Shown: positions 12,399 through 38,583 of the stretch, in pieces
Numbering within the stretch: position 1 is the first letter of the stretch
Layout: each line of letters begins with the position of its first letter
DNA from: an uncultured Eubacteriaceae bacterium
GTDB lineage: Bacteria > Bacillota > Clostridia > Lachnospirales > CAG-274
Direction: 5' to 3'
Assembly: GCA_947565475.1 (NCBI GenBank)
Contig: CANOGI010000001.1
Location: 1 to 40,092, forward strand
DNA: 40,092 nucleotides
The notes under the pieces: model-generated
Seen by the model: the letters and a program-made list of their open reading frames with translations, nothing else
Database searches by the model: none
Told to the model about the DNA's origin: nothing
Position numbers and translations under genes: made by a program

Positions 12399-12615
12399 GG
12401 AAAAGAATAACAGGGTTATAACTATTATATTGTATACGATTAAATCGATTTGGGAAATTTTTATTTTTAAGGGACTGTCTTATAGTCAAACTACTTGAAA
12501 ATAAGCAAAAAGAGGAGAGATTAAAATTATTTTTGAAAGGCAGCGAAAAGAGAGCAAAGCTTAGAGCCTATGCCGACTGACGCTAATAAAGCCTAATAAA
12601 GCAAAAAATGATTTT

Positions 12616-14420: not shown

Positions 14421-14433
14421 TAACTAATGTTTT

Positions 14434-14580: not shown

Positions 14581-14657
14581 TAATGTTTAAAATCACAGAA
14601 ATTTGTTTTAAATTTTAATCTTATTTCTGGAGATTGGTGGAATGTGTAGGACGTTAT

Positions 14658-15722: not shown

Positions 15723-15744
15723 TATAGGGCTTGAGGAATGTTTT

Positions 15745-15998
15745 AACTGACTAAGTAGTCCCATACGCACTAACTTAAAGATTGTGGAACGCTGCCTAAC
15801 ACCCTGTAAGCCTTTTTGAAAAAAGGTTCAGCACTTTTGGCCGTGCCGAAAGCCTAAGTTTTTTAAGTTAGTGTATATACTGATAAGTCCCCGTTTTTTA
15901 AGCGAGGGGGATTTACTCTTGTTATTCAGCGGGAGTATAAGCTTATGCATAATACAAAGGTGGAGTTATCAATAGAACATTTTGTAATAGTCTTTGAC
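15745..15998 (+). repeat. R-A family (divergent subfamily), split by R-D
   Basis: AACTGACTAAGTAGTCCC [R-D] ACTGATAAGTCCCCG...CGAGGGGGAT...GTTATTCAGCGGGAGT...AATACAAAGGTGGAGTTATC...TAGTCTTTGAC. The 5' 14-17 nt are repeated on both sides of the insert. Confidence 0.65.
15768..15873. repeat. R-D family 106-bp MITE-like element nested in R-A
   Basis: Perfect terminal inverted repeats CACTAACTTAAA / TTTAAGTTAGTG. The interior (GGAACGCTG..ACACCC.GTAAGCCTTTT.AAAAGG) matches 18150-18200. Confidence 0.7.
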
Positions 15999-16031
15999 TG
16001 ATTTTTATAAAAGAAAACAGGAGGGAAAATT

Positions 16032-18393: not shown

Positions 18394-18424
18394 CCTATGA
18401 GGTAAAAAGCAAAGTTTCTTGGGA

Positions 18425-18508
18425 GTCAAGACTACTCGAATTTTTGTAACCGACGGCGAAAGTATTCACCTTTGTATTCAGGGTGAGTATGTACTCCCTC
18501 TGTCGGTT
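18425..18508 (-). repeat. R-A family, internally deleted copy (only minus-strand copy)
   Basis: The reverse complement reads AACCGACAGAGGGAGTACATACTCACCCTGAATACAAAGGTGAATACTTTCGCCGTCGGTTACAAAAATTCGAGTAGTCTTGAC. Hairpin 2 and one arm of hairpin 4 are missing. Confidence 0.7.
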
Positions 18509-20252: not shown

Positions 20253-20605
20253 CAATAAATGTATCGATAAGTGGTAAAATATAGTTTTATAAGTGATTTG
20301 CCTAAAAATATATTTATAAATATTATATTTTTAAGCTTTTATATTATAGTTTCTTTTAATTTTTATATAGTATAACATATAATTTTACTAAATTCAACAA
20401 TTATTTTTTTAAAATATTTTTTCAAAGTTATTTTTCTAAAGCGACTTATGTGAAACGTGAAACTCACCGAGGGGTTTATTATAACAGAGACTCAAGATTT
20501 TAACGGCGTTAAGTTAAATTCGCCGTTTTGATTGGGCGGTCTGTTGAGTCGGCTAATGGCGGTATTTTGACATTTGCCGGTGCTTGTCGGCGATTTTTTG
20601 CGTTT

Positions 20606-20804
20606 AACCGACAGAGGAAGTCACCTGCTTATTAAGCGGGGGAACTTACTCTTGTATTAAAAGGAGTGCAAGCCAGGTTGCAAGGGCAAGCAGTAAAATG
20701 AAGTTTTGCGACCAGCCCCACACTGAATACAAAGGCGAATACTTTCGCCGTCGGTTACGAGAATTTTTGCTATTTTGTTATATGAAAATTCGAGTAGTCT
20801 TGAC
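20606..20804 (+). repeat. R-A family copy inside the rpoB leader (199 bp, enlarged hairpin-3 loop)
   Basis: AACCGACAGAGGAAGTCACCTGC...GCGGGGGAACTTAC...CTTGTATTAAAAGGAGTGCAAGCC[~45 nt extra]CTGAATACAAAGGCGAATACTTTCGCCGTCGGTTACGAGAATTTTTG...AAAATTCGAGTAGTCTTGAC. Hairpin 2 carries mismatches compared with other copies. Confidence 0.8.
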
Positions 20805-20871
20805 CGCTTTGTTTTCTCACGGAAGAAATTTCCGTAATTTATATACTATTATTTTAAGGAGTGAAGGCGCC

Positions 20872-23800
20872 ATGGAGAAAAACAGAATACGCCCCGTCAA
20901 GCTTGGCGACGTGGTTCGTATGAGTTATTCGAGGATAGACGAAGTTTTGGAGATGCCTAATCTGCTCGCTTTGCAGAAGGACAGCTATAAGTGGTTCTTG
21001 GAGGAAGGCCTCAAGGAGGTTTTTGAGGATATTTCCCCTATATGTGATTACAGCGGAAATCTTGTTCTTGAATTCACGGATTTTACTTTTGATTCCGAAC
21101 CTAAATATGACATTCCCGAATGTAAAGAACGTGACGCGACTTACGCGGCGCCTTTTAAAGTAAAAGCGCGCCTTAGAAACAAGGAAATCGACGAGATTAA
21201 AGAACAGGAAATTTTTATGGGGGATTTTCCTCTGATGACGGATACTGGAACTTTTGTTATTAACGGCGCCGAGCGTGTTATTGTAAGTCAGCTTGTTCGT
21301 TCTCCCGGTATTTATTACGCTATTGAGAAAGACAAAGTCGGCAAAAATCTTTTAAGCTCCACCGTTATCCCGAACAGAGGCGCTTGGATTGAGTATGAGA
21401 CAGACTCTAACGATGTGTTTTACGTAAGAGTCGATAGAACGAGAAAGGTTCCTGTTACGGTTTTAATACGCTCCTTGGGAATCGGAACCGATGAAGAAAT
21501 TCTTGAGCTTTTCGGAAATGAGCCAAAAATGTCGGCGACTATTGAAAAGGACACGACAAAAACAAAAGAAGAAGGACTCATCGAGATTTATAAGAAAATA
21601 AGACCAGGGGAACCTCCTACTGTCGATAGTTCTGAAACCTTACTTAATAATATGTTTTACGACCCTAAAAGATACGATTTAGCTAAAGTGGGACGATATA
21701 AATTTAACAAAAAGCTCGCTTTTAGAAACCGTGTCAGAGGCTATAAACTTGCCGAAAACGTGGTGGATCCGTCGACAGGAGAGGTCATTGCCGAGAAAGA
21801 TACGAAAATTACCGCGGAGATAGCGGATTCTATCCAAAATACGGGTGTACCTTATATTTGGGTTGTCGTAGGGGAAGTGAACGAGGAGAGAAACGTCAAG
21901 GTTTTGTCAAATCTTACAGTTTCTATAGACGAGTATATAAAGCCTTACGGTCTTACCGCGAAAGAGCTTAAAATTAAAGAAAAAGTTTATTATCCGGCTC
22001 TTATGGAGATAATTTCATCAAGCGACGGCAAAGAGGAAATTAAGGCCTCTATTTTAAATAATATTACAAAGCTTATTCCAAAACATATTACCCTTGAGGA
22101 TATTATGGCGTCGATAAACTATGTTATGCATCTCGACTACGGTATCGGAAACAAAGATGACATCGACCATCTAGGAAACAGACGTATTAGAGCCGTTGGC
22201 GAGCTTTTGCAAAATCAGTTCAGGATAGGTCTCTCAAGAATGGAAAGAGTTGTACGTGAGAGAATGACTATTCAGGATATGGACGCTATCACTCCTCAGG
22301 CTTTAATAAATATTAAACCTGTTACAGCCGCTATTAAAGAGTTTTTCGGAAGTTCTCAGCTTTCACAGTTTATGGACCAGAACAACCCTTTAAGTGAGAT
22401 GACCCATAAACGCCGTCTGTCAGCTTTGGGCCCCGGAGGTCTCTCAAGAGAGAGGGCCGGTTTTGAGGTTCGTGACGTTCACTCTTCCCATTATGGAAGA
22501 ATGTGCCCCATAGAGACGCCGGAGGGACCTAACATCGGTCTTATTAACTCTTTGGCTACTTTCGCCAGAATAAATGAGTATGGCTTTATTGAGGCTCCTT
22601 ATCGCATTATTGACAAGACGGGGGATATTCCAAGAGTTACTGACGATTTTATTTACGTTACCGCCGACGAGGAGGAAGCGTATGTCGTAGCTCAAGCTAA
22701 TGAACCCCTTAATGAGAATGGCGAGTTTATAAACGCCAAGGTTACGGCGAGACTTGGTGAGGAAAACGTAGAGATGGACGCCAATAAAATAGACCTTATG
22801 GACGTTTCACCTAAACAGCTTGTATCGGTGGCCACAGCTCTTATTCCTTTCCTTGAGAACGACGACGTTACCCGTGCCCTTATGGGTTCCAATATGCAGC
22901 GTCAGGCGGTTCCTCTTTTGACGACGGAGGCTCCCGTGGTAGGTACAGGTATGGAACATAAAACCGCCAAAGACTCTGGTGTTGTTATTGTGGCTAAACA
23001 TTCAGGAGTTGTCGAGAAGGTTGACGCTTCAGAGATAGTTGTTTTATGTCAGAATGGTTCTAAAGACCGTTATAAGATGACTAAGTTTAAAAGAAGCAAT
23101 CAATCTAACTGTATGAATCAGAGACCGATTGTTTTTAAAGGCGACAAGGTAAAGGAAGGTCAGATTATTGCCGACGGTCCATCAACAAGAGACGGTGAGC
23201 TTGCGCTCGGTAAAAATCCTCTTATCGGGTTTATGACGTGGGAAGGCTATAATTATGAGGACGCTGTTTTGCTCAGCGAGAAACTTGTGGCCGACGACGT
23301 TTACACTTCCGTTCATATTGAGGAATATGAGGCGGAGGCGAGAGACACTAAACTCGGACAAGAGGAAATCACGAAGGATATTCCAAACGTCGGCGAGGAC
23401 GCTTTAAGAGACCTTGACGAAGAGGGTATCATAAGAGTTGGCGCTGAAGTTCAGCCAAATGATATTTTAGTCGGAAAAGTAACTCCTAAGGGAGAAACAG
23501 AGCTTACAGCGGAAGAGCGTCTTTTGCGCGCGATTTTCGGTGAGAAAGCGAGAGAGGTCAGAGATACTTCTCTGCGTGTTCCTCATGGTGAGAGCGGAAT
23601 TATTGTGGACATTAAGAAGTTTACGAGAGAAAATAACGACGAGCTCCCTCCTGGGGTTAATCAGCTTGTACGCGTTTATATAGCTCAGAAAAGAAAAATT
23701 TCTGTAGGAGATAAAATGGCGGGACGTCACGGTAACAAAGGTGTTGTTTCCCGTGTGCTTCCTGTTGAGGATATGCCGTTTTTACCTAACGGACGACCTC

Positions 23801-24825
23801 TTGACATCGTGCTTAATCCTCTTGGCGTGCCGTCTCGTATGAATATAGGACAGGTGCTTGAGATACATTTAAGTCTCGCCGCTAAAGTACTTGACTGGAA
23901 AGTCGCCACACCTGTATTCGACGGCGCTAAGGAAATAGACATTATGGATACTCTTGAGCTCGCTAACGATTACGCCAATTTAGAGTGGGAGGACTTTTCA
24001 GAGAAATGGGAAAGTGTCCTTGACCCGGAAATTTTTGAGTATCTTGATAAAAATAAGGCCCACCGTGAGGAATGGAAAGGCGTTCCTATTAATAATACGG
24101 GTAAAATCAAACTTAGGGACGGACGTACGGGAGAGGAGTTTGACAACCCAACGACTGTAGGATTTATGCACTATTTGAAACTTCATCATCTTGTTGACGA
24201 CAAAATTCATGCCCGTTCCACAGGTCCTTATTCTTTAGTTACTCAGCAGCCTTTGGGCGGTAAGGCCCAGTTTGGCGGACAGCGTTTTGGAGAGATGGAG
24301 GTTTGGGCTCTTGAGGCTTATGGCGCTTCTTATACGCTTCAAGAAATTCTTACCGTTAAATCTGACGACATTGTTGGACGTGTGAAAACCTATGAGGCTA
24401 TCGTGAAAGGTGAGAATATTCCGGAGCCGGGTGTTCCGGAATCCTTTAAAGTTCTTTTAAAAGAACTTCAGGCGCTGGGGCTCGATGTTCGAGTGCTTAG
24501 AGAAGACGATACGGAGGTTGAAATCAAGGAGGACCTTGACGACGACGATATAGGCGTTATTGATGTGAATATTGAGGGCGTTGAGAAAGATGACTATTTA
24601 GAAAAGGAAGAGGAAGAAACCGACATTGTTGATACGGTTCTTAACAATCCTGAGCTTTTAGACGAACTTGAGATAGATGAGGACGATATAGAGATAGACG
24701 ATGATGATATTCTTATTGATGAGGATGAGAACGATATAGAGATAGACGATGAGCTTTTCAACGATTTAGATGATTTTGAGGATGAAAACGGTATTGATGA
24801 GATAATTAAAGATGACGAAGAATAG
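20872..24825 (+). CDS. rpoB: DNA-directed RNA polymerase subunit beta
   Basis: Unmistakable beta-subunit sequence (e.g. [74 protein letters not shown]). ATG 20872 with AAGGAG at 20856-20861. The 58 codons upstream in the ORF track are read-through of the R-A repeat. Confidence 0.98.
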
Positions 24826-24842
24826 GAAGGAGAAATTTTGTT

Positions 24843-27800
24843 ATGCATGCACAAAACGGCGAACAGGCTATAACTTTTGATTATATTAAAATTGGTTTGG
24901 CGTCTCCTGAGAAAATTCTTGATTGGTCATACGGTGAAGTTAAAAAACCCGAAACTATTAATTACAGAACTTTAAAGCCGGAGAGGGACGGTCTTTTCTG
25001 TGAGAGAATTTTCGGACCAAGCAAAGACTGGGAATGTCACTGTGGAAAATTTAAGAGAATAAGATATAAGGGCATTATATGTGACCGTTGCGGCGTTGAG
25101 GTTACAAAAAGCAAGGTAAGACGAGAAAGAATGGGGCACATAAAACTTGCCGCCCCTGTTTCTCATATATGGTATTTTAAAGGTATTCCGAGCCGTATGG
25201 GTATTATACTCGGTATGTCTCCGAGAGCTCTGGAAAAAGTGCTTTATTTCGCGTCATATGTTATTCTTGACCCGGGAAACAACACCTCCCTTGTATACAA
25301 AGATTTGCTTACCGAAAAGGAATACAGGGACGCCAGAGATAAATACGGCGATACTTTTAAAGTTGGAATGGGAGCGGAGGCTATTAAGATTCTTCTCCGT
25401 GACATAAATCTTGAGAAAGAATCCGTTGAGCTTAAAAAAGAACTTAAAAACAGTACGGGACAAAAAAGAGTGCGTATTATAAAAAAGCTTGAGGTCATTG
25501 AGTCTTTCAGGGTTTCAGGAAATAAGCCTGAATGGATGATTCTTGATGTGATACCTGTTATACCTCCTGATTTGCGTCCTATGGTTCAGTTAGACGGCGG
25601 AAGATTCGCCACTTCTGACCTTAACGACCTTTACAGGAGAGTCATTAACAGAAATAATAGGCTTCAAAGACTTCTTGACTTACACGCTCCTGACATAATT
25701 GTGAGAAATGAGAAAAGAATGCTTCAAGAGGCTGTTGACGCTCTTATTGACAACGGTAGGAGAGGCAGACCTGTCACAGGCCCCGGAAACAGAAGCCTTA
25801 AATCTCTTTCTGACCTTTTAAAAGGTAAACAGGGGCGTTTCCGTCAAAACCTCTTGGGAAAACGAGTTGATTATTCAGGACGTTCCGTTATTGTTGTCGG
25901 ACCTAATCTTAAAATTTATCAATGCGGTCTTCCTAAGGAGATGGCTATTGAGCTTTTTAAACCTTTTGTTATGAAAAAGCTTGTTGAGGACGGGCAGGCT
26001 CACAACATTAAGTCGGCGAAACGTATGGTTGAGAGACTTCAGACAGAAGTATGGGACGTTTTAGAAGATGTTATAAAAGAACATCCCGTTATGTTGAACC
26101 GAGCTCCGACTCTTCACAGGCTTGGTATTCAGGCTTTTGAGCCTGTATTGGTTGAGGGAAGGGCCTTAAAGCTTCATCCACTTGTTTGTACCGCTTATAA
26201 CGCCGATTTTGACGGCGACCAAATGGCCGTTCACGTTCCTCTATCTGTTGAGGCACAGGCGGAATGCAGATTTTTGCTTTTAGCGCCAAACAATCTTTTG
26301 AAACCTTCTGACGGGGAGCCTGTTACTGTTCCGTCTCAGGATATGGTATTGGGAATTTATTATCTTACTCTTGAGAAAGACGGGGAACCTGGAGAGGGAA
26401 AAGTTTTTAAAGATGAAAACGAGGCTCTGCTTGCTTATGACAATCATGTCATCAGTCTTCACGCCAAAATTAAGGTGAGAAGGACTCTTGAGATTGACGG
26501 TGTTTTACAGTCTCAGATTGTTGATACAACAGTGGGCAGGATTATTATAAATGAGATTATTCCTCAGGATATTGGTTTTGTGGACAGAAGTATTCCTGAA
26601 AACCGATTTAAGTATGAAATAGATTTTCTTACGGACAAAAAAGGTCTGGGGAAAATTATTAATAGATGTATTAACAAGCATACAGCCACGGAAACAGCTG
26701 TTGTTCTTGACAATATAAAAGGACTTGGCTTTAAGTTCTCTACAAGGGGAGCTTTGACAGTTTCCGTTTCCGATATGGAAATTCCAAAAGAAAAGGTCGA
26801 GTATCTCGCTGAGGCGGACAAAGTTGTTGACAAGATAACTAAGATGTACAGGCGAGGGCTTATGACAGACGAGGAAAGACACGCTAAAGTTATTAAAGCG
26901 TGGGAAGTGGCTGACGATAAAATAACAAACGCTCTGTTAGCGGGGCTTGGTAAATATAACGACATTTATATGATGGCGCATTCTGGCGCCCGTGGTTCCA
27001 ACAGACAGATTAAACAGCTTGCCGGAATGCGTGGGCTTATGGCGTCTCCGTCAGGAGAGACAATCGAGCTTCCTATTAAGGCGAACTTCAGAGAGGGTCT
27101 CTCAGTTCAGGAATACTTTATTTCCGCTCATGGGGCGAGAAAGGGTCTCTCTGATACAGCTCTTCGTACGGCGGACTCCGGTTATCTTACCCGTCGTCTT
27201 GTAGACGTTTCTCAGGAAATTATTATTCACGAATGGGACTGCGCCGAGGGCGAGGATGAGGTTCCAGGAATGAGAGTAAGCGCTTTTATGGACGGGCAAG
27301 AGGTTATAGAGCCTTTATCAGACCGTATCAGAGGAAGATATGCCGTGGAGGATATTTATCACCCTGAAACAGGAAAACTTCTGGCGAAAGCGGACAGCAT
27401 GATTTCCCCTGACCAAGCTGACGCTATTGAGGCATCTGGAATTAAGACAGTTCATATCAGAACAATCCTCTCATGCCGCGCGAGAAAAGGCGTATGCTCT
27501 AAGTGTTATGGCGCTAATATGGCTTCAGGAAGAATTGTAAGAATAGGGGAGTCGGTAGGTATTATCGCCGCTCAGTCTATCGGTGAGCCTGGAACACAGC
27601 TTACTATGCGTACTTTCCATACGGGCGGTGTTTCTGGAAACGACCTTACGCAAGGTCTTCCACGTGTAGAGGAGCTTTTTGAGGCGAGAAAGCCAAAGGG
27701 TCTTTCTATTATCTCTGAGACAGGCGGTAAAGTCACCGTCACAGACACCAAAAAGAAGAGAGAAGTTACCGTTATTAGTGAGAACGGCGAGGTTAAAGAG

Positions 27801-28388
27801 TATCTCATACCTTACGGTTCCCGTATTAAAGTGCTTAACGGAGATGTTATAGAGGCAGGCGACGAGCTTACGGAAGGAAGTGTAAACCCTCATGATATTT
27901 TAAGAATTAAAGGTATCAGAGGGGTTCAAGACTATATGATTCAAGAAGTTCAGCGTGTATACAGGCTTCAAGGTGTTGACATTAACGATAAGCATGTTGA
28001 GGTTATTGTAAGGCAGATGCTTAAACGCATTAAAGTTGAGGAAAACGGTGATACAAATTTCTTGCCGGGAAGTCTTATAGACTGGCTTGAGTTTGAGGCC
28101 GTGAACAAAGAAATGCTTAAAGAGGGGCTTGAACCCGCTAATGGTTCAAGGGTACTGTTGGGTATCACAAAAGCCGCTTTGGCTACGGAATCGTTCCTTT
28201 CGGCGGCTTCTTTCCAGGAAACAACGAGAGTTCTTACGGAAGCGGCCATTAAAGGCAAGGTTGACCCTCTTATCGGTCTTAAAGAAAATGTTATTATCGG
28301 TAAACTTATTCCCGCCGGTACGGGTATGAATACTTACAGAAAAATTGACCTTAAACTTATTGATAAGGAAAATGTAGCGGGAGAATAA
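24843..28388 (+). CDS. rpoC: DNA-directed RNA polymerase subunit beta'
   Basis: Zn-finger [23 protein letters not shown], catalytic [14 protein letters not shown], trigger-loop and bridge-helix regions. GGAAGGAG RBS upstream. Confidence 0.98.
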
Positions 28389-28422
28389 TTGATTTTATAA
28401 ATTTTATATAAATGACCTGCTT

Positions 28423-28570
28423 AACCGACAAGAGGAAGTCCCCCGCTTAAAAAGCTGGGGACTTCCTCTTGTATTAAGTAGGAGTGCAAGCTCCAAATTA
28501 ATATAAGGGCGAATGATTTCGTTGTTGGTTACGAGAATTTTTGTTATACAAAAATTCTCGTAGTTTTGAC
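28423..28570 (+). repeat. R-A family, canonical 148-nt copy
   Basis: It starts 35 nt after the rpoC stop. All four hairpins are intact, including a perfect hairpin 4, TACGAGAATTTTTG-TTATA-CAAAAATTCTCGTA. Tail TAGTTTTGAC. Confidence 0.85.
28431..28476 (+). terminator. rho-independent terminator for rpoC (hairpin 2 of R-A)
   Basis: AGAGGAAGTCCCC(C)GC-TTAAAAA-GC(T)GGGGACTTCCTCT forms a stem of about 15 bp, followed by the T-rich TGTATT. It also faces the convergent minus-strand gene ending at 28592. Confidence 0.65.
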
Positions 28571-28591
28571 TGAGGTGATTAGTATTAGCTA

Positions 28592-29317
28592 TTAATTTTT
28601 TAATTCTATTCCGTTTTTAGAGGCAAAATTTTTTAATTTTTCAATATATATTTTATATTGATTTTGTATTTCGGCGAGTTTATCGGTATCTGTTAAGTTT
28701 CCATAATTTTTTACTGTTCTCTCAAAGGCGTTAATTTGGTTTAATAAAGTTATAAATTCTTCAGCGGAAGATTTATTCAGAGATGAACGATTTTCAGTTA
28801 TCTGGTTTATTATTGATTTTAATTCGCTAGCAGTGTAAGCCTTTTTTCCTGTTGAGCGGATTATATCTTTTTGACTTGTTTCGTTTGTATTTATTTCCGC
28901 TGTGTATGTGTCAGGATTCCATTTAACCTCGGCGTTAAACGCCTGTGAAACCGCTCTTAAAGGTATTAATGTACGATTATTTATTATTTTTGGTTCTACA
29001 TCAAGAATTACTTTTTTTGAATTTACCGACATTTCTTTTGAACCGATTTTCATAATAACAGTTATGTTTTTTTTGCGACATATTATAGTTCTGTTTTTTT
29101 CATTCCACTCAACAGAGGCGCCGAGCTCTTCTAGTATAGCCCGAAAAGGTACGAGGGTTGTACCTTTTTCGATTATAGGTTTTTGGTCGAAGTGTAAAAA
29201 TTTGTTGTTTAATTTAATTTTTATATCGGGCGATGCTGTTATGGAGAAAGGTGAGAGGAAAGTCAAGCAAATCAATGTTATAAAGCCACGCTTAAATAAT
29301 TTTTTTATAGATGACAT
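28592..29317 (-). CDS. secreted stalk-domain protein with C-terminal helical module
   Basis: Signal peptide. Stalk motifs EKGTTLVPFRAILEELGASVEWNEKNRTI and INNRTLIPLRAVSQAFNAEVKWNPDTYTA. C-terminus YKIYIEKLKNFASKNGIELKN. Confidence 0.75.
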   Translation of the reverse strand: MSSIKKLFKRGFITLICLTFLSPFSITASPDIKIKLNNKFLHFDQKPIIEKGTTLVPFRAILEELGASVEWNEKNRTIICRKKNITVIMKIGSKEMSVNSKKVILDVEPKIINNRTLIPLRAVSQAFNAEVKWNPDTYTAEINTNETSQKDIIRSTGKKAYTASELKSIINQITENRSSLNKSSAEEFITLLNQINAFERTVKNYGNLTDTDKLAEIQNQYKIYIEKLKNFASKNGIELKN

Positions 29318-29379
29318 TTATCAAATCTCCTTTTTTATTTGGAATTTCCGTAATTACATAGTTTAGAAAAGAATGGCAT

Positions 29380-29742
29380 TTATGGCGTATCGTTTAAGCC
29401 CACGTCATAGTTGAGAGTAATGCTGTTTTCCTCAGCTATATTCTCAATTTTCTCAATATAAATATCATATTGTTCAGTAATTTTATTTATTTTTTCCTGA
29501 GAGTCAAACTCTTTGGGATTGGAATTTATATTTTTTACATATTCTTTTATTTCTTTGACGAGAGAAACATATTCTTCTTTTGAGTCTAAGGAAAGGCTGT
29601 CCGCCTGAGAACTGATTGAGTCAATGACGGATACAAGTGTAGCGGCGGTTTTTTCATTATCTAACATATTATTAGACTGGCAACCTGCCAACAGAGTAAT
29701 TGAAAGGGGGACTGTAATTAAGGCACGCGAAATTTTTCTCAT
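29380..29742 (-). CDS. small lipoprotein consisting of the helical module only
   Basis: Lipobox LLAGC. C-terminal YDIYIEKIENIAEENSITLNY matches the module ending of neighbouring paralogs. Confidence 0.7.
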   Translation of the reverse strand: MRKISRALITVPLSITLLAGCQSNNMLDNEKTAATLVSVIDSISSQADSLSLDSKEEYVSLVKEIKEYVKNINSNPKEFDSQEKINKITEQYDIYIEKIENIAEENSITLNYDVGLNDTP

Positions 29743-29998
29743 TTTTGAACAAGCTCCTTATATATATAAGCTAACGACGTATATTTTATGCCAAAAATTT
29801 ATTTGTTTAAATTTTAAGCTTGGGATTATGGAAAAAAGTATTAAACAATATTATATTTTTATTTTATCCACTAAAAAAGTGATAATACAAGCCTTTTATT
29901 TATAAATTAAAAAATAAATTTATAAACAAAATTTAAAAGCTTTATATTATCACCTTTTTATGTAATTTACGATTCTTAATAATTATTTATTAAGAAAA

Positions 29999-30331
29999 TT
30001 ATTTAATTTCGATATTGTTTTTCTTAGCGATGTCTTTTAATTTAGTGTCAAGTTCCTCGATTTTAGCGAGAGCCTCGTCTAAATCAGCGTCATCTCCTGC
30101 TGAAGCGATAGACATAAGTTCAGTAGCCTCAGTCTGAAGAGCTTTCATATCTTCCTGAAGTTTAGCCTGAGCGTCAGCGTCTAATTTTGTAGCTTCCTGA
30201 GCTATAGTTGTAGCGGAAGTCATAAATTTCTGAGCCGCAGCCTGTACGTCTTCCTCAGTAGCTCCGCCACAGCCTGTAAATAAAGAAAGTGATAAAATAG
30301 AAACACCTAAAATTGATAAAAACTTTTTCAT
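29999..30331 (-). CDS. small Ala/Glu/Lys-rich lipoprotein with the helical module
   Basis: MKKFLSILGVSILSLSLFTGC lipobox. C-terminus KLKDIAKKNNIEIK. AAGGAG sits 9 nt upstream of ATG 30331; the ATG at 30349 in the ORF track would overlap this RBS. Confidence 0.7.
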   Translation of the reverse strand: MKKFLSILGVSILSLSLFTGCGGATEEDVQAAAQKFMTSATTIAQEATKLDADAQAKLQEDMKALQTEATELMSIASAGDDADLDEALAKIEELDTKLKDIAKKNNIEIK

Positions 30332-30394
30332 TGTAATAATCTCCTTCAATAAAAAATTAAAATGTTAATAAACTGTAAATTTTATTATAAAAAA

Positions 30395-30423
30395 ATTATA
30401 CCACACAAAATTTAATTTGTAAA
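30395..30423 (-). promoter_or_regulatory. candidate sigma-A promoter for the 29999-30331 lipoprotein gene
   Basis: The minus strand reads TTTACA (30423-30418), 17-bp spacer, TGG-TATAAT (-10 at 30400-30395, extended -10). About 60 nt upstream of the start codon. Confidence 0.55.
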
Positions 30424-30594
30424 TAAAAATTTTAATTTAATTTGGAATAATTTTTTATACTTTAGTTTATAATAATATGTATATAAAAAAGTGAAACACA
30501 AATAATTATAAACTATACATTTCATTATAACATATAAAATATTATTTGTAAATACGTTTTTTAATTATTTACATGAGCTTTTTTTTATGGGAAT

Positions 30595-31560
30595 TTATAA
30601 ACTATTTAAGTTTGAGAGAGTCTGGCTCATATTCTGTACGGCGTCAAGAAGTTCTTTTTCAGAGGTTATTGGTTTTACCGTGATATGATTCTTTTTAGCG
30701 AAAGAATTAAGTTTAACGGCATATTCCCCTAACTTAGACGGATTTGTCATATTATTTGTTATATCAACGGTAAATTCTTGACAAATTGTTTTAAATTCTG
30801 TTTGAGAAGATTTGTCCAAAGATGTTATGTTATTTATTATCGCTATAAAAGGAGCGTAAAAATCGTAATACGCCTGCATTAACTCAGAGTCTTCCGCCAT
30901 ATCTGAGGTATTTTCCATATCATCAACGGAATCCATTAAATCATTTAAAGATGATATAGGTTTTACTGTTATATTATTAGCTTTCGCCACGGCGTTAAGT
31001 TTAACAGCGTATTCATTCAATTTATCCGTGTTTGCCAAGATTTTGCCGAAATCGGATAAAATTTCTTTGTAAAGACTTATGACCTCTGGCATAGAGGCTT
31101 CTTTTATAACATCGGCGTTATCTGACACGGCTATACACGGCGCGAAAAAGTCAAGATATGCTCGTTCCCATTTTTGATAGTCGAAATTTTCGTAGTCAAA
31201 GTTTTTTATAGTGTCGGTTAAGAGAGCGTCAATATCAAGATTTTCAATATCTTCTAATAAACCATCCAAATCTTTTTTCAGAGCGGAGCTATTAGTAGAA
31301 GAATTTGAGTTTGAAGTGGGATTTGAAACTGAGGAAGAATCTAAACCCGAAAGTTTGGAAGCGGGATTTGAAACTGAGGAAGAATCTAAACCCGAAAGTT
31401 TGGAAGCGTTATAAGAATTAGCGCTTTCGGAGTCTTTTACGGAAGATTCAAAAGAAGACTCCGTGGTTGTTTGTTCAGTAGTCTCATCTGAGTCCCCACA
31501 GCCTGAAAGCAAAGCGAGGGATAAAAGAGAAACTCCCAAAATCGATAAAAATTTTTTCAT
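30595..31560 (-). CDS. lipoprotein with Ser-rich linker and two tandem helical modules
   Basis: MKKFLSILGVSLLSLALLSGC lipobox, nearly the same signal peptide as the 29999 gene. Two modules end LNAVAKANNITVKP and LNSFAKKNHITVKP. GGAGG RBS. Confidence 0.75.
   Translation of the reverse strand: MKKFLSILGVSLLSLALLSGCGDSDETTEQTTTESSFESSVKDSESANSYNASKLSGLDSSSVSNPASKLSGLDSSSVSNPTSNSNSSTNSSALKKDLDGLLEDIENLDIDALLTDTIKNFDYENFDYQKWERAYLDFFAPCIAVSDNADVIKEASMPEVISLYKEILSDFGKILANTDKLNEYAVKLNAVAKANNITVKPISSLNDLMDSVDDMENTSDMAEDSELMQAYYDFYAPFIAIINNITSLDKSSQTEFKTICQEFTVDITNNMTNPSKLGEYAVKLNSFAKKNHITVKPITSEKELLDAVQNMSQTLSNLNSL
31318..31407. repeat. perfect 45-bp tandem duplication inside the lipoprotein gene
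   Basis: GGGATTTGAAACTGAGGAAGAATCTAAACCCGAAAGTTTGGAAGC occurs at 31318-31362 and again at 31363-31407. In-frame, it encodes ASKLSGLDSSSVSNP twice on the minus strand. Confidence 0.9.
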
Positions 31561-31716
31561 TGTTAAAACCTCCTTAATTTTATTTTAAAACTGTTTGAGA
31601 TTTTTCAAACAATTTTTTTATGTACTGAAGTGCCGAGAGGAAAATTGTAATCAAATTTTAAGAGCACGTAAAGCGCGCGAACGGGAAGCTAAAAGAACAG
31701 CTTTCCGCATAATTGA

Positions 31717-32811
31717 TTATTTTTGTTTTTCAAATGGTATTTTTACCTCTATTATTCCGGAAGAATAGGGCGCTATCTCATATTGATTAAAGAAAAACAC
31801 AAGCCCGTCTTTGGAAACGTAGAAATTATCAGGCGATAAATCCTCAACGAGTTTTTCCGAGTCATCGTAAAAATTATCAGGATTTTCCTTTATCTCTTTT
31901 TTGAAAAGTTCTTTTACATCTTTTAAAATCGCCTCGGAATCTTTTCCGCAAAGTTCTTTAGCTACCTCGTCTAAAGTTACGGCGCCTGTCTCTATGTTAT
32001 ATGTTTTGGCTGATTTAAGCGTAGAGGGATGAGCTCCTCCCGTATATGACGTTTCAGTGCTTATTATTGAGAGATAGTTATCAAATTCGTCGGCGTCATA
32101 AGTGAGCGTAAACTCATAGGGGTGGAAGTTTTCTGTATTTTCGATGAATATGTCTTTTGCCTCTTTTTTTAAATTGTCAAGGGACATATCCATATCATCT
32201 GCTTTTTTATTTAAAAATTTCTCAGCCTGAGAGTTTCTTTTCTCCTCGAAAAGTGAATACGCTTTTTCACTTAATTTTTCTTTTAATAACTCTGAGTTTG
32301 TATATATTTTTGCCGTTATGAGGACGGTATCGCCGTCTGTTATATTACATGTTTCTGTGGCGATAGGATTCACGGTGTTAATTATTATTGTTTTAGTATT
32401 GGCATCGTAATTTATGACCGCACCTAACGCCTCGTTTATGACTTGGAGGGGAACAAGAGCTTTTCCATCTGTTATTTTCGCGGGAAACTCAATATGAATC
32501 TTTTTGCCGTTTACGTCGATTTCAGAAGCCCCGATTGTCACGCTTATGGTTTTATCATCCTTTGTACATATTATTGTTTTTGTGCTTTCATCCCATAAGA
32601 TTGACGCTCTTATTTCTTCCATAAAATTTCTGAAAGGTATAAAGGGGATTCCGTCTTCTATCGTAAAGGGCTGTTCAAGGTTGATTTCTTTATTATCAAG
32701 CGTTATGGTGAATGTTTTATTTTCTGTTATGGCAAGTATCGGAGATACTGAGCAATACTGCAAAACAGCGCTTAATAATATCGACGTTATTATTTTTAAT
32801 TTTCTTTTCAT
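31717..32811 (-). CDS. secreted stalk-domain protein fused to a DUF4163/DUF3298 (RsiV/PdaC-like) domain
   Basis: Stalk motifs EDGIPFIPFRNFMEEIRASILWDESTKTI and TDGKALVPLQVINEALGAVINYDANTKTI. The C-terminal half has SYTGGAHP and FNQYEIAPYSSGIIEVKIPF, typical of DUF3298. Confidence 0.75.
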   Translation of the reverse strand: MKRKLKIITSILLSAVLQYCSVSPILAITENKTFTITLDNKEINLEQPFTIEDGIPFIPFRNFMEEIRASILWDESTKTIICTKDDKTISVTIGASEIDVNGKKIHIEFPAKITDGKALVPLQVINEALGAVINYDANTKTIIINTVNPIATETCNITDGDTVLITAKIYTNSELLKEKLSEKAYSLFEEKRNSQAEKFLNKKADDMDMSLDNLKKEAKDIFIENTENFHPYEFTLTYDADEFDNYLSIISTETSYTGGAHPSTLKSAKTYNIETGAVTLDEVAKELCGKDSEAILKDVKELFKKEIKENPDNFYDDSEKLVEDLSPDNFYVSKDGLVFFFNQYEIAPYSSGIIEVKIPFEKQK

Positions 32812-32846
32812 TTTTAATTCTCCTTGTATGATAAGTTATTTATTTT

Positions 32847-32995
32847 AACCGACAGAGGAAGTCCCCCGCTTTTTAGGCGGGGGTACTTCTTCTTGTATTC
32901 AGGAAGAGTGCAAGCTCACTTTGAATACAAAGGCGAATATTTTTGCCGTCGGTTACGAGAATTTTTGTTATACAAAAATTCGAGTAGTATTGACT
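32847..32995 (+). repeat. R-A family, canonical 149-nt copy
   Basis: AACCGACAGAGGAAGTCCCCCGC-TTTTTA-GGCGGGGGTACTTC...CTTGTATTCAGG...TTGAATACAAAGGCGAATATTTTTGCCGTCGGTTACGAGAATTTTTGTTATACAAAAATTCGAGTAGTATTGAC. It lies between two minus-strand genes. Confidence 0.85.
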
Positions 32996-33108
32996 TGTAT
33001 GGAGTAAGTATAAGCTGATAGTAAATATAAATGTTATAATAATCTGTTGAAAGAATTTCGTGAAACAAAAATATAAATAGTTTTTGTTTAGATAAAAGCG
33101 GATTAATG

Positions 33109-34617
33109 TTAATCTTCTATTTTAATTTTATTTTTTTCCGCTAAAACTTTAAGTTCTTCAATATATTTTTTTAACTTCTTTTCCGCTGTGTCAATTTTTT
33201 CCTGTGTGTTCAGACGCTGACTGTTTGATAAAAGACCTTTTACATATTCTAATATCTCACTCATAAATTGGGTATGTTCTGAGGATTCGGGCAGACCTTT
33301 TTTAATTCGCATATAAATATTTGAAAGTTCTCTCTCCGCCGATATAAAACCGATTATGTCAAGGTCTTGCTGTTTTTCTTTAGCGGCGGATGTTCTCTTT
33401 AGATCCTCTATATAAATTTTCATTTCATTTGTAATTTCGTCAATTTCATTTTGAGACGAAAAACAGTTAAACATACTGTTTATAAATTTTAAGGAAATTT
33501 CATATGGTACAGCCATAGTCTCAGGGTTTTCCGAGTGGTCTTTGAGAAGTTCTTTTAATGTTTTGGTATATTCCGAATAGTCAAATTTAGTCATATTGTG
33601 TTCGGACATAAAGGTTTTAATTTTTTCAATAATTTTATTGAGTTTTATTTCTATTTCCTTAGTTTTCCCAATATCTTCGCTGTCATAGGAGGTTATATAA
33701 CCGTCCGCCAAAAATGATAATATATCGAGATAAATTTCTTTAGCCTCTTGATATGTTTCTGTATTTAAAGAGCCGGAAAGTTGAGAAACAAGCGGAATTA
33801 ACTCAATAACAGTTTCATTTTCAATAAATGAAAGAAAGCTTGTTATAAAGCATATACTGTTTTCAGCGCTTGTCTCAGAGTAAATAAGTCTGTCGTTTCT
33901 TTTAAACAAATCTGTTATTTTTTCGGCGTATTCTTTTTTTATATTCTGCTTTTTCTCAATTATTTGAGGGTCTCCGTTTTTAGAATTTTCAGTCAAATAA
34001 ACATAGTCCTTTGAGGTATAAAAATTAAATATAATTTCTTTCGCCTCTTCAATGGAGTTATCGTCAAAATCTTTTAGATTGGCTATTAACATAAAAGTAA
34101 TGTTTGACATCGTATTATCAGAAATATAACGATTTGTGTTAAAATCATATATGTCATCTGATGTGTTATGATTTATGAACTCGATAAGATTTTCAACATC
34201 TTTAATGTAGTGAACGACGGAGGAGTTAATAATTTTTGACACTGTAAAGTCGGATATGTAAGCCGTGGAGTTTATTACTTTCGAGGGAGACACGGATTCT
34301 TCGTAAATTTGATTGTTTACCGTAAAAGAGTCGGAGCCTATTGTAATGGAAAAATTTATTTTACCATTTGAGCCGTGTATTGTTTTTTTTGAGCTGTCGT
34401 AAATTATTTTATAGCCTATATTCTCAAAAAAAGTCCGAGCGGGCAAATAAGTCTCAAGACCGGTGTCGTCAAAAAATACAGGTTTATCAAGTTTAACGAT
34501 ATTTCCGTTTACCATTATTATAGTATTAGGATCAAAGTCCCCGAAAGTATAAACGGGAGCGGTAAAAGATAACGCGGTTACCGCTGTTAAAAATAAAGAA
34601 GCGAGCCTTTTTTTCAT
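33109..34617 (-). CDS. secreted protein with divergent stalk-like N-terminal domain and long helical region ending in the module
   Basis: Signal peptide. Divergent stalk pattern MVNGNIVKLDKPVFFDDTGLETYLPARTFFENIGYKIIYDSSKKTI. C-terminus YIEELKVLAEKNKIKIED. Weak RBS. Confidence 0.65.
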   Translation of the reverse strand: MKKRLASLFLTAVTALSFTAPVYTFGDFDPNTIIMVNGNIVKLDKPVFFDDTGLETYLPARTFFENIGYKIIYDSSKKTIHGSNGKINFSITIGSDSFTVNNQIYEESVSPSKVINSTAYISDFTVSKIINSSVVHYIKDVENLIEFINHNTSDDIYDFNTNRYISDNTMSNITFMLIANLKDFDDNSIEEAKEIIFNFYTSKDYVYLTENSKNGDPQIIEKKQNIKKEYAEKITDLFKRNDRLIYSETSAENSICFITSFLSFIENETVIELIPLVSQLSGSLNTETYQEAKEIYLDILSFLADGYITSYDSEDIGKTKEIEIKLNKIIEKIKTFMSEHNMTKFDYSEYTKTLKELLKDHSENPETMAVPYEISLKFINSMFNCFSSQNEIDEITNEMKIYIEDLKRTSAAKEKQQDLDIIGFISAERELSNIYMRIKKGLPESSEHTQFMSEILEYVKGLLSNSQRLNTQEKIDTAEKKLKKYIEELKVLAEKNKIKIED

Positions 34618-34658
34618 TTTAAATTCTCTCTTTCTGATTATAAGATTACATTATTAGA

Positions 34659-34872
34659 ACGTATCTGAAAACTGAAATACGCGCGAGAAATTATAAAAAA
34701 GCAAAATGAATTTGAAGCGTATCATTTTATTCTTTGGATATTCAGCCTTTTTAACAATATAGAAATTCGCGAAATTTTTAATATAAAATAACATTTGACA
34801 TTATTTGGATTTATTAAAGTTTATTTGTCTATTATTTTATTGTTAGCTATATACATAGTTTTCAGATACATA
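34659..34872. repeat. R-H family 214-bp element bounded by inverted repeats
   Basis: Terminal inverted repeats ACGTATCTGAAAACT (34659-34673) / AGTTTTCAGATACAT (34858-34872). The interior shares the AAATACGCG.GAGAAATTATAAAAAAG core with 1204-1240. Confidence 0.65.
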
Positions 34873-34893
34873 TAGGTTTAATATTTAAAATTA

Positions 34894-36351
34894 TTATATA
34901 ACTTTCAGTTGTAACTTTGCCGCGAGAAATTTCCACTCATCGTGAAGCTGAGTTATATTTTTTACGCAGTTAGCTATTTGAGCGTCCGTCATTTTCGTTA
35001 TTGTATCGAAAGCGGCTGAAAATTCAGGGTTGTCAGAATTGAGTTTAAACAGTTTTGAGTATGTGTCGAGAGTTTTTATATAAAGAGAGTTGTACTTTGC
35101 CTGATAATCAGAATACTTTTGCTTTAAGGTTTTTCCGTTCTCATCGGCGTCAAGGTCGGACGCTTTTTTTATAAAATTTTTTAAATATACTGTGAGGTCG
35201 AGATCCGCCTTTATAAGAGGTTTTATATCTGTTTTGCTCGATTTCTTAGTGGTTTTTCCACTTATTCCGAGGTTAATGTAAATTGTTTTCACATCCTCAA
35301 GTATTTCTTTTACCTCCTCTTCAGCGTCGAGAATATCATCTTTGCCGGGGATTAATTTATCCGGGTCGTCGGAGAGATACTCATTTTTGAATTTCTCAAT
35401 TCTCTTTATGTGTTTGTTATAAGGTTTTTCAGCAAAAGCGTATTTTTCTTTAAAAATATAGGGCTTATCGGCGCCGTCATCTATAGAGCGAACTGTATAG
35501 TTCTCAATATATTTTTCGTAAAGGTCTATGTCCGACATATAATCGGCGTAATCGGGAATACTACAGCCCACTTTATCGGCGAAGTTTTTAATCTCGTCTA
35601 TTAAAACATCTACGGAATCTTCAGAGAGATTTAATATTTTTTTCGCTTTTTTCATCTCGCATGAGTTTATATTGCTGTAATCTATATTTATTTTTCCAAA
35701 AGGCGAGTCTTTGCCGTTGAAAATGTCAGAAAAATACTCAAACTCTTTGGCGTAGGACTCGTATTCGGGTTTTAAAATTTTAGCCAGGGTCATATATGAG
35801 CCTTTATCAAGACATATTCCGTCGTTTAAAGCGTAGATATACAGTGAGAGTTTTGTGAGTTTTGACGATAAGACGGCGTCCTCGGAATTTACAGGAGAGT
35901 ATATGAACACTGTCTGAAGCTCACTATCCCAAAACACTTCTGAATTTAAGGCTTTTGACAGCGCTCTTAAAGGGATATATGTCGTACCGTCTATAAGAAC
36001 GGGTGGAACGTCTAAAAACACGTCGGCGTCCTCAGAAAACCGCATTATATTGCTGTTTATTACAAAAGTGAGGTATATATCGTCTTTTGAGCAAACTATT
36101 GTTTTTGTTTTTGGATTCCAATCTAAGGCGATATTCATCGCGTCAGCTATTTCTCTTAAAGGCACAAGAGTAACTCCGTCTTTAATTACAGGGTCTTTTG
36201 ATAAGTTTAAAATATTGTCGTCAAGTTCCACGATAATTTTATTGCTTGTCACCGAGTAAGAAACGGCGAAAGTTTTAAACGTTTCTGTCGATGAGAAAAT
36301 TAAAGCGGATAAAATGATAAAAGATAAAAATTTTATAAAATATTTTCTCAT
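34894..36351 (-). CDS. secreted stalk-domain protein with long helical C-terminal region
   Basis: Signal peptide. Stalk motifs KDGVTLVPLREIADAMNIALDWNPKTKTI and IDGTTYIPLRALSKALNSEVFWDSELQTV. Degenerate module ending FLAAKLQLKVI. AAGGTGA RBS. Confidence 0.72.
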   Translation of the reverse strand: MRKYFIKFLSFIILSALIFSSTETFKTFAVSYSVTSNKIIVELDDNILNLSKDPVIKDGVTLVPLREIADAMNIALDWNPKTKTIVCSKDDIYLTFVINSNIMRFSEDADVFLDVPPVLIDGTTYIPLRALSKALNSEVFWDSELQTVFIYSPVNSEDAVLSSKLTKLSLYIYALNDGICLDKGSYMTLAKILKPEYESYAKEFEYFSDIFNGKDSPFGKINIDYSNINSCEMKKAKKILNLSEDSVDVLIDEIKNFADKVGCSIPDYADYMSDIDLYEKYIENYTVRSIDDGADKPYIFKEKYAFAEKPYNKHIKRIEKFKNEYLSDDPDKLIPGKDDILDAEEEVKEILEDVKTIYINLGISGKTTKKSSKTDIKPLIKADLDLTVYLKNFIKKASDLDADENGKTLKQKYSDYQAKYNSLYIKTLDTYSKLFKLNSDNPEFSAAFDTITKMTDAQIANCVKNITQLHDEWKFLAAKLQLKVI

Positions 36352-36407
36352 AAAATCACCTTAAATATTCTTAATGATGCTTTAAGCGTTTTTAAGTTTT
36401 CAGAAGT

Positions 36408-37841
36408 TTAATACGCTTTTCCCCATATAACCATTTTCTCAGCGGGTTTTTGACAGCATACGCACGTATCTCCTATATGTTCCTGCTCAAACGGTATACA
36501 TCTTGAGGTCGCTCCTGTTTCTTCCTTTATTTTATTTTCACATTCCTCGTTTCCGCACCACATAGCTTTTATAAAGCCTTGATTTGTCTCAAGAACTTTT
36601 TTAAACTCTTCCATATTTTTGGCTTCGGACGTTTTTGCCTCTCTGTGGGCTTTAGCTTTTTCCAAAAGACTTGACTGAATGTTTTCAAGAAGGGAGATAA
36701 CTTCTTTTTCAATTTCAGATAGCTTAACGGTTGTTTTTTCGCCTGTGTCGCGTCTCGCCAAAACAGCCTGACCGTTTTCTATATCACGAGGCCCGAGCTC
36801 TATTCTCACAGGAACACCTTTCATCTCATACTCGCTGAATTTCCAGCCTGGTGATTTATCAGAATCGTCAAGGCGAACCCTGCATACTTTTGAGAGGGTC
36901 TTTAAAACTTCCTCAGCTTTTTCCAAGACACCTTCTTTTTTCTGCATTACCGGTACTATTATTACTTGGGTAGGAGCGACTTTAGGAGGGAGCACAAGCC
37001 CGTTATTATCGCTGTGAACCATAATAAGACCTCCGATAAGACGAGTCGATACGCCCCATGACGTTTGATGAACGTATTGAAGCTTATTGTTTTTATCAGT
37101 ATATTTAATATCGAAAGCTTTGGCGAATCCGTCTCCAAAGTTATGGGACGTTCCTGACTGAAGAGCTTTTCCGTCGTGCATAAGGCTCTCGATTGTGTAT
37201 GTGGATTTAGCTCCGGCAAATTTTTCTTTATCTGTTTTTTGGCCTTTTATTACAGGAATCGCGAGAACTTTCTCACAGAAGTCGGCGTATTCGTTAAGCT
37301 GGGCGATTGTCTCCTCTTTTGCTTCTTCCTCTGTGGCGTGAGCGGTATGCCCTTCCTGCCACAAAAACTCAAGGCTTCTTAAAAAAGGTCTTGTGGTTTT
37401 TTCCCAGCGTACAACAGAACACCACTGGTTATAAAGTTTAGGGAGGTCACGGTATGACTGAACTATATTGGAATAGTGCTCGCAGAAAAGAGTTTCTGAA
37501 GTCGGTCTTACGCAGAGCCTGTCGGTTAGTTTTTCCTCACCCCCGTGAGTAACCCAAGCTACCTCAGGAGCGAAACCCTCAACATGGTCTTTTTCTTTTT
37601 GAAGAAGACTTTCGGGGATAAACATAGGCATATAAACGTTTTCGTGTCCTGAAGCTTTAAATCTCTCGTCAAGTTGCTTCTGAATAAGTTCCCATATAGC
37701 GTATCCGTAAGGGCGGATAACCATACAGCCCCTTACGCAGGAATAATCAATTAAATCGGCTTTTTTTACTATATCTGTATACCATTTAGCGAAATCGTCT
37801 TCCATAGATGTTATCGCGGTAACCATTTTTTCTTGTGACAT
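36408..37841 (-). CDS. proS: proline--tRNA ligase (archaeal/eukaryote-like class II type, ~477 aa)
   Basis: Class II aaRS motifs ([12 protein letters not shown]; [15 protein letters not shown]; GTSHNFG), an anticodon-binding domain, and a C-terminal zinc-type domain (WCGNEECE...CVCC). AAAGGAG RBS. Confidence 0.95.
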
Positions 37842-37875
37842 AAATATAAACTCCTTTTATAAAAAATTGGTTGGA

Positions 37876-38239
37876 GCGTATCTGAAAACTCTCCCTAACT
37901 GTTAAAAGTATATAAAACTTTATTTTTTTAAGATTATTTTTATTTTCTCAAAACTAAAATATACAAAAAATTATAAAAATAAACGAGATTTGACTGGCGT
38001 TTATTTTTTATTATTTCTCATACTAATCTTATAAGAGCTGTTAAGTAACAATATCTTTGCTAATTGTTATCATCTAAGTTATTTAGATGATATATTTAAA
38101 AAGTGGATATAATATATTAGGACGGTATAAAAACAAGGCGAATACTTTCACCGTCGGTTACAAGAATTTTTGCTATACAAAAATTCGAGTAGTTTTGATA
38201 AGAGATTAGTATTATGTATATTTTAGTTTTCAGGTACGC
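37876..38239. repeat. R-H family copy (364 bp) containing an R-A 3' fragment
   Basis: Terminal inverted repeats GCGTATCTGAAAACT (37876-37890) / AGTTTTCAGGTACGC (38225-38239). The interior is inverted relative to 34659-34872. It starts 35 nt upstream of the proS start codon. Confidence 0.6.
38124..38198 (+). repeat. R-A family, 3' half only
   Basis: ...ACAAGGCGAATACTTTCACCGTCGGTTACAAGAATTTTTGCTATACAAAAATTCGAGTAGTTTTGA. Hairpins 1-3 are absent. Confidence 0.7.
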
Positions 38240-38299: not shown

Positions 38300-38583
38300 T
38301 GTGGAAAAGATGAAAATATTCAAAAGTAATGAATAAAGTTATCAACAAGAGGAATATAATTAAAACAAGCTCTAAAGGCTTATCAACAAAGTTATCAACT
38401 TTTCCACAGTGAATAATTTATGAATATTGATTTTTTTTGTGAGAAACCCTGTTTATAAGTAATTTTATTGGAAAAAACACAATATATTGTGGGTCTTATA
38501 ACAGAGTTTGCGGATATATAGTTAATTATACGGAAAAATGACTGTGGAAAAGGTATATGTTATCAACAAAAAAATGTGGATAA
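38300..38583. promoter_or_regulatory. DnaA-box cluster (8 boxes in 284 bp)
   Basis: TGTGGAAAA 38300-38308; TTATCAACA 38339-38347; TTATCAACA 38380-38388; TTATCAACT 38392-38400; TTTTCCACA 38400-38408; TGTGGAAAA 38543-38551; TTATCAACA 38560-38568; TGTGGATAA 38575-38583 (perfect). Consensus is TTATCCACA / TGTGGATAA. Confidence 0.7.

Follow-up and report, generated by a model that had tools for sequence, protein, structure and literature searches.

Do the exported proteins encoded between rpoC and proS in an uncultured Eubacteriaceae bacterium stem from a recent burst of local duplication, or are they a long-standing part of the cell envelope? The question is raised by a 40,092-nucleotide stretch of contig CANOGI010000001.1 (assembly GCA_947565475.1, positions 1 to 40,092; hereafter the window), in which seven consecutive minus-strand genes, here called A to G, fill the interval between the two core genes. 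The rpoC gene (24843–28388, plus strand) is convergent with the array and bounds it downstream; proS, coding for a class II prolyl-tRNA synthetase (36408–37841, minus strand), bounds it upstream and is separated from G by 56 nt. All seven open reading frames (ORFs) were recovered where an earlier note, made from the sequence alone, had placed them, as were two additional paralogs at 14961–17114. The latter, here called H and I, form a second, tandem locus, and both encode stalk proteins of the PF07833 family.

The earlier note described nine related exported proteins within 40 kb and attributed them to rapid local duplication and domain shuffling. The description stands, in that every protein carries a stalk domain, a helical module described below, or both, although no one domain is common to all. 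The attribution does not. We favour, with a probability of roughly 0.6, a cluster of cell-envelope proteins that is old, is kept in synteny and is specific to a single clade of uncultured Clostridia.

A helical module shared by seven of the nine proteins

The stalk domains had been thought to be fused each to a different C-terminal region. An all-versus-all blastp comparison of the C-terminal regions contradicts this, as homologous sequences were found in A, B, C, D, F, H and I. The strongest pairs are A–B (2.9e-11, 35% over 79 aa), B–F (1.5e-7), B–I (4.5e-7), B–C (7e-5) and A–D (7e-5). A hidden Markov model (HMM) iterated from a six-sequence seed defines a unit of ~78 residues, and matches it at 1e-12 to 1e-26 (Z set to 1e6). 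As a control for chance, the HMM matched family members alone among the 10,258 ORFs of the window and 82 related loci.

The number of modules varies among the proteins. B (29380–29742) and C (29999–30331) consist of a lipoprotein signal and a single module, at residues 32–110 and 32–109, respectively. D (30595–31560), also a predicted lipoprotein, features a Ser/Thr-rich linker and two modules (residues ~121–200 and ~219–297), recognized by hhalign with probabilities of 94% and 88%. In the other four proteins a signal peptide and a stalk domain precede the module. A (28592–29317) has a stalk at residues 36–142 and one C-terminal module at 162–239. H (14961–15722, plus strand), the first gene of the tandem locus, encodes one module at residues 172–247, and I (16032–17114, plus strand) encodes two, at 175–247 and 280–357. 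In F (33109–34617) a degenerate stalk (residues 36–131) is followed by a helical region containing at least two modules (residues ~267–341 and 427–500; hhalign 99% and 89%) and a third, partial copy (47%).

The two remaining proteins are built differently. G (34894–36351) has a signal peptide, a PF07833 stalk at residues 44–150 and a conserved helical region of ~330 residues private to G orthologs; E (31717–32811) has a signal peptide, a stalk at residues 38–144, a PdaC-type domain at 184–264 and a DUF3298 domain at 294–361. No module was found by hhalign in either of them. G is not counted as a module protein because the hhalign probability stayed below 5% with both 4 and 16 orthologs, and only the 15-residue motif IDEIKNFADKVGCSI resembles the module end. 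The mixed domain architectures reported at the outset are thus real, the stalk being joined to one or more modules, to PdaC/DUF3298, or to the G-specific helical region.

Proteins A and G were modelled with AlphaFold2 (AF2), A from its single sequence and G from a 16-sequence alignment. In the A model, the module folds into three helices, with predicted local distance difference test (pLDDT) scores of 82–91. The module consensus ends in "...QEK-DE-T-KY--Y---LK--A--N-I", in which A72 and I77 are almost invariant. The conserved positions lie in the helix cores, at the helix caps and in the motif A-x-[KE]-N-x-I at the end. Because these are helix-core and helix-capping residues, the module may be a structural or protein-binding unit.

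The module is rare. HMMER, run exhaustively over 1.84 billion cluster representatives, returned 30 matches at E<=1e-3, ~28 of which are real; the leucine-rich repeat proteins P0029 and P0032, drawn in by HMM iteration, were excluded as compositional false positives. Word-indexed homolog searches, made with B and with a 33-sequence module alignment, returned close B orthologs alone. No Pfam family was matched by more than 4 of the 33 members, and none above threshold; NCBIfam gave no match, PDB sequences gave designed helical bundles only, and Foldseek searches with the A and G models found no significant match for any helical part. Among the proteins matched, architectures consist of a lipobox followed by a module, or of a stalk followed by one to three modules; P0027 combines a transmembrane segment, a module and, by eye, a downstream YARHG motif. 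The module is accompanied by envelope-targeting signals only, and is confined to a very small clade. To judge from these searches, it represents a previously undescribed domain family, absent from Pfam, NCBIfam and PDB, and the protein family as a whole appears restricted to a narrow clade of uncultured Clostridia.

In format alone, the module is reminiscent of protein A domains, the GA module and FIVAR-type repeats: like these, it is a short, repeated helical-bundle unit, here present in one to three copies in exported, anchored proteins. In contrast to these, the module is longer, no sequence or profile similarity was found, and the array proteins lack LPXTG, SLH or other recognized wall anchors.

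Stalk domains, export signals and protein E

PF07833 (Cu_amine_oxidN1) matches exceeded the Pfam gathering cutoff of 24.2 bits in six proteins: A (4.9e-37, 126.6 bits), E (2.1e-26, 92.4 bits), F (1.7e-11, 44.5 bits), G (1.5e-26, 92.9 bits), H (1.5e-37, 128.3 bits) and I (1.9e-19, 70.1 bits). B, C and D match neither PF07833 nor any other Pfam family. The presence of stalk domains, first suggested for four or five of the seven array proteins, is therefore confirmed by Pfam, and the number is exactly four (A, E, F and G). The [LMFY]-x-P-x-R core does occur twice in A, E, G and H, in line with the double motif noticed earlier, but the two occurrences are the halves of a single 108-residue PF07833 domain.

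The modelled stalks resemble domain D1 of Escherichia coli amine oxidase. The G stalk (pLDDT ~80) superposes on D1 (6GRR/1OAC) with a root-mean-square deviation (rmsd) of 1.6 Å over 75 columns (E 7.5e-4), and the A stalk superposes on 1SPU with an rmsd of 2.4 Å over 73 columns and also matches 1OAC. Both stalks are thus predicted to adopt the D1 fold. Known PF07833 stalk-domain proteins share the overall plan, in which one PF07833 domain, composed of two TLVPLR-type halves, comes after a signal peptide, and one G ortholog (MCI8805841.1) is so named by NCBI. They differ in the partner of the stalk, which here is an undescribed module or the G-specific helical domain and not a hydrolase, a superoxide dismutase (SOD) or SLH, and in number, since six stalk proteins are encoded here within 40 kb. 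A stalk-type N-domain mediates homodimerization in the Paenibacillus lautus SOD (PMC10432803), and in cell-wall hydrolases the stalk is listed as a module predicted to bind the wall (bioRxiv 10.64898/2026.09.23.753664); in the literature on the stalk domain, no function beyond this dimerization role and the presumed wall-binding label was found.

Export of all seven array proteins by a signal peptide or lipobox, as originally proposed, is borne out by heuristic checks. In all nine proteins, an N-terminus rich in K/R (two to four such residues) is followed by a hydrophobic stretch. A lipobox fitting the pattern [LVI][ASTVI][GAS]C is found in B (LAGC), C (FTGC) and D (LSGC), in each case with the cysteine at position 21, and these three are predicted to be lipoproteins. 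Phe at position -3, as in C, is tolerated in lipoboxes but is less common. E (LQYC) and H (VFC) fall outside the pattern. A clear Shine-Dalgarno sequence precedes the ATG in seven of the nine genes, B, C and D included, and is weak in G and F. The preferred start of C is the ATG at 30331, because the Shine-Dalgarno sequence GAAGGAG lies before it.

The near-identity of the C and D lipoprotein signal peptides, already noticed in the earlier note, was confirmed (18 of 22 residues). At the DNA level it corresponds to a 100-nt repeat, 77% identical between the 5' ends of the two genes, which spans the ribosome-binding site too. The same type of signal peptide is found in P0012, P0018, P0024 and P0026 of other genomes, which argues for shared ancestry rather than recent gene conversion. 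Adjacent paralogous lipoprotein genes with a conserved signal peptide are also typical of staphylococcal lpl/DUF576 clusters. In contrast to these, B, C and D match neither DUF576 nor another lipoprotein family, number only three and are interleaved with stalk proteins, and the position of the array is conserved across genomes rather than strain-variable.

E is the only one of the nine proteins in which PdaC (PF13739, 44.8 bits; cutoff 29.1) and DUF3298 (PF11738, 65.8 bits; cutoff 24.1) were detected. Its nearest solved sequence relatives are 3CYG (2.1e-12) and 3S5T. The C-terminus had been called DUF3298/RsiV-like; the first half of this label holds, as E shares with the RsiV/PdaC N-terminal region both Pfam domains above threshold. 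The identification of E as RsiV was rejected: E scores 25.8 bits (6e-6) with the NCBIfam equivalog NF052658, the cutoff of which is 250, and begins with a signal peptide and a stalk. Unlike RsiV and PdaC, E has no anti-sigma N-terminal domain, membrane anchor or deacetylase domain.

Age of the array and competing explanations

The nine paralogs are 25–36% identical to one another by blastp. In other genomes each has an ortholog of its own, at 45–100% identity; among the cluster representatives the values are 41–69%. G is represented by 15 ortholog clusters (65–97% identity) and adjoins proS in every relative examined; orthologs of F were identified in L083, L084, L085 and L092 (loci of relatives are given L numbers). 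When stalk domains were placed in a neighbour-joining tree, those of G, F and A sorted with their orthologs from other genomes, as did that of E with its close orthologs. The E-like genes of L091, L092 and L094 formed a separate cluster, and H and I were isolated among the loci sampled.

Gene order is likewise conserved. The series proS-G-F-E-D-C-B-A recurs in related metagenome-assembled genomes, namely in all five loci in which proS is ~96% identical to that of the window (L084, L085, L086, L087 and L089). A convergent rpoC follows A in L085–L087, APH and SpoIIE genes take the place of rpoC in L084, and the contig ends after A in L089. In L088, the G protein of which is the same as in L085–L087, the array stops after C and is followed by smc. 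L083 (proS 92%) carries proS-G-F-E-D up to the contig end. A seven-gene array is also present in L092/L093, where G is 73% identical: proS-G-F-E is followed by three small genes, an A-like gene and convergent rpoC-rpoB. In four further loci the array is shorter. L090 (G 65%) has G, genes of 159 and 120 aa, an A-like gene, HSP20 and rpoC; L091 (G 67%) has G followed by an E-like gene; L094 (G 70%) has G, a stalk gene and then an inverted distal part; and L003 (proS 86%) has G, a lipoprotein gene and an A-like gene before the contig ends. The junction between the array and rpoC is as in the window in L001, L085–L087, L090 and L092. Among 80 proS loci of other genomes (70–86% identity), only L003 has array-type genes beside proS. 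The H–I pair is positionally kept as well, in the order csaB, tagA, yitT, malK, H, I, proC, SLH-GH18, rpoB.

Such orthologs and recurring order imply that the duplications are older than the divergence of the sampled genomes. The proS-rpoC array is ancestral in the clade, with the middle part alone variable; gene content in mid-array does differ between genomes. Its position beside rpoC and proS is genuine and inherited from the ancestor of the clade, and nothing ties the array functionally to either gene. For the stalk domain, widespread but functionally obscure, this provides a defined and conserved setting, beside proS and, in most of the relatives examined, opposite rpoC.

Some loci depart from this order. 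Right of the array, APH, SpoIIE and hydrogenase genes are found in L084 (9282–14447), and smc and ftsY, without B and A, in L088 (10338–14985); in L086, F is split into ORFs of 66 and 391 aa (11850–13363). Such differences may reflect either genuine rearrangement or sequences joined at repeats during assembly.

Ratios of non-synonymous to synonymous substitution rates (dN/dS) were calculated by the Nei-Gojobori method against sister genomes (dS 0.2–0.65). The lowest values were obtained for malK (0.02), proS (0.035), G (0.05), A (0.07) and the SLH-GH18 gene (0.10), followed by E (0.14), F (0.17–0.18), H (0.19), B (0.20–0.24), D (0.21) and I (0.28). In L084 and L085 the C protein shows 100% identity (dN/dS 0), at a dS of 0.17. 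All genes are under purifying selection, and none is near neutrality gene-wide. Most module proteins evolve faster than other nearby genes; I, B, D, H and F make up the fastest set, and I is the fastest-evolving gene of the neighbourhood.

The reading that we favour accounts for these data as follows. The proteins are assembled from a kit comprising a Sec-type or lipobox export signal, the stalk, one to three modules, PdaC/DUF3298 (in E) and a private helical domain (in G). Duplication and domain recombination produced the paralogs before the sampled genomes diverged; since then, purifying selection has kept them at the same site, and the genes in the middle have drifted in number and in length. 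In B, C and D a lipid anchor may display the module outside the cell, at the membrane surface, and in A, F, H and I the stalk, which bears the module, may hold it in the wall zone. The stalk may act as a dimerization or wall-association unit, wall binding being presumed in other Firmicute proteins, and the module as a structural spacer or protein-binding unit rather than as an enzyme. Together, the products would form part of a protein layer extending from membrane to wall. As matters stand, the outcome is a well-delimited protein family rather than a surprising mechanism.

Several observations weigh against this reading. G and E lack the module, so that no single domain unifies the array. Signal peptides were assessed by heuristics only. 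Domain charges follow no consistent pattern that would hint at wall binding, and the right flank differs in L084 and L088, through either rearrangement or misassembly. Moreover, in the only binding test found, non-SLH probes, a stalk-domain probe among them, left cells unlabelled (bioRxiv 10.64898/2026.09.23.753664).

Among the alternatives, the one that fares best, though we hold it to be unlikely, is a defensive or host-interaction array, the members of which would neutralize external factors (lysozyme, via E) or mediate attachment to a substrate, and would diversify under external pressure. The PdaC and DUF3298 domains of E and its weak match to the RsiV profile fit such a role, as do the raised non-synonymous rates of I, B, D, H, F and E; a helical module on a surface anchor is, moreover, a format often met in Gram-positive ligand-binding proteins. 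However, gene-wide dN/dS values are far below 1, the RsiV score is about a tenth of the equivalog cutoff, and the module matches no ligand-binding family in Pfam or PDB.

Recent, rapid, lineage-specific tandem expansion in the window genome, with ongoing domain shuffling, is a still less probable explanation. It would account for the variation in gene content, which ranges from three array genes before the contig end in L003, through four plus HSP20 in L090, to seven in the window and L092, and for the 5' repeat shared by C and D. Module proteins also have the highest dN/dS nearby, and the linker of D varies in repeat copy number: a 45-nt tandem repeat at 31310–31399, the two units of which are 96% identical, encodes ASKLSGLDSSSVSNP in a Ser-rich stretch, and D has one 15-aa linker unit more than in related genomes. 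Recent duplicates would, however, hardly be just 25–36% identical to one another against 45–100% for orthologs, or group mostly by ortholog in the stalk tree. Each paralog has a positional ortholog, the C/D-type signal peptide is family-wide, and the seven-gene order is kept in genomes at dS ~0.4 to >1.3, even where G is only 73% identical. The comparison of the rpoC–proS interval in relatives, which had been proposed as a check, speaks against rapid local duplication.

It is very improbable that the array is a horizontally acquired island or the cargo of a mobile element lodged between core genes. The GC content of the array (29–36%, versus 41–47% in rpoC), the dispersed repeat that flanks parts of it, the variable right flank in L084 and L088 and the match of phrog_23118, a phage family without assigned function, to the stalk domain could be taken as signs of such an origin. 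Yet no integrase, transposase or tRNA gene is present in the array region; the place beside proS is kept in all relatives examined, and that beside rpoC in several; and the dispersed repeat, being absent from relatives, arrived later. Lastly, the AT-rich sequence, which favours long ORFs, and the lack of Pfam matches in B, C and D might suggest that the ORFs are spurious, in part or altogether. This is already refuted by synonymous changes far in excess of non-synonymous ones in every gene, by the conserved length and order of orthologs and by the Shine-Dalgarno sequences described above.

Envelope genes, a dispersed repeat and DnaA-box-like sites

Envelope functions are plentiful in the remainder of the window, consistent with a role of the stalk and module proteins in the envelope. 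A cell-wall polysaccharide block at 3904–12398 encodes two GT4 glycosyltransferases, a CsaB-type pyruvyl transferase (8938–10122), TagA/WecG (10668–11426) and YitT. At the start of the block, a 775-aa ORF (1403–3730, plus strand) has no Pfam match at E<=1e-5. Relatives keep the block and have a Wzy-type gene immediately upstream of csaB; the malK-H-I-proC context belongs to the same neighbourhood, in relatives too. An SLH-GH18 protein is encoded at 18616–20172 (minus strand). Taken together, genes of these kinds are typical of a pyruvylated secondary cell-wall polymer with SLH anchoring.

A more specific proposal is that the module is a clade-restricted docking domain that joins the lipoproteins B, C and D with the stalk proteins A, F, H and I, forming a lineage-specific scaffold from membrane to wall that works beside the SLH/pyruvylated-polymer system. 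In this detailed form the proposal is speculative and, in our estimate, quite unlikely. If the module were an interaction unit, it would represent a novel means by which Gram-positive bacteria assemble their envelope protein layer.

A dispersed intergenic repeat of ~160 nt occurs eight times, in full or in part, within the 40 kb. Seven copies are in minus orientation (12611–12740, 14427–14581, 15885–15968, 20603–20806, 28413–28572, 32836–32996 and 38130–38198) and one is in plus orientation (18423–18502). It is predicted to fold into a three-way junction, which TAACCGAC/GTCGGTTA close and which bears a GC-rich hairpin at its end; a few compensatory changes are present, and no Rfam family matches it. 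In 1.5 Mb of related loci, including the genomes with 96% identical proS, the repeat is essentially absent, with one short match in L094. Outside the window it is complete only in L001, a near-exact match to the window (A 100%, rpoC 99.9%), and in the F–E spacer, where the window carries the repeat, relatives show only a short hairpin. It looks like a recently expanded element, similar to miniature inverted-repeat transposable elements and specific to the strain or species.

GC skew of the plus strand is mostly positive across the array, and proS and the array (28592–37841) are convergent to rpoB-rpoC (20698–28388). The rpoBC genes are usually co-oriented with replication; if this applies here, the array and proS would be head-on genes.

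Upstream of proS (37842–38130), Rfam searches detected neither a T-box nor another leader, permissive thresholds included. Further upstream, the ftsH-proS spacer (38300–38583) contains seven DnaA-box-like sites (TTATCCACA, <=1 mismatch) in 284 nt; over the whole window there are 20, versus ~8.6 expected by chance. A replication origin at this cluster is unlikely because GC skew is positive to its left and rpoBC would be head-on. The cluster is kept upstream of proS in seven of eight related genomes (L090 being the exception), even where the upstream gene is different, and the DNA of the ftsH-proS spacer is more conserved than the flanking genes.

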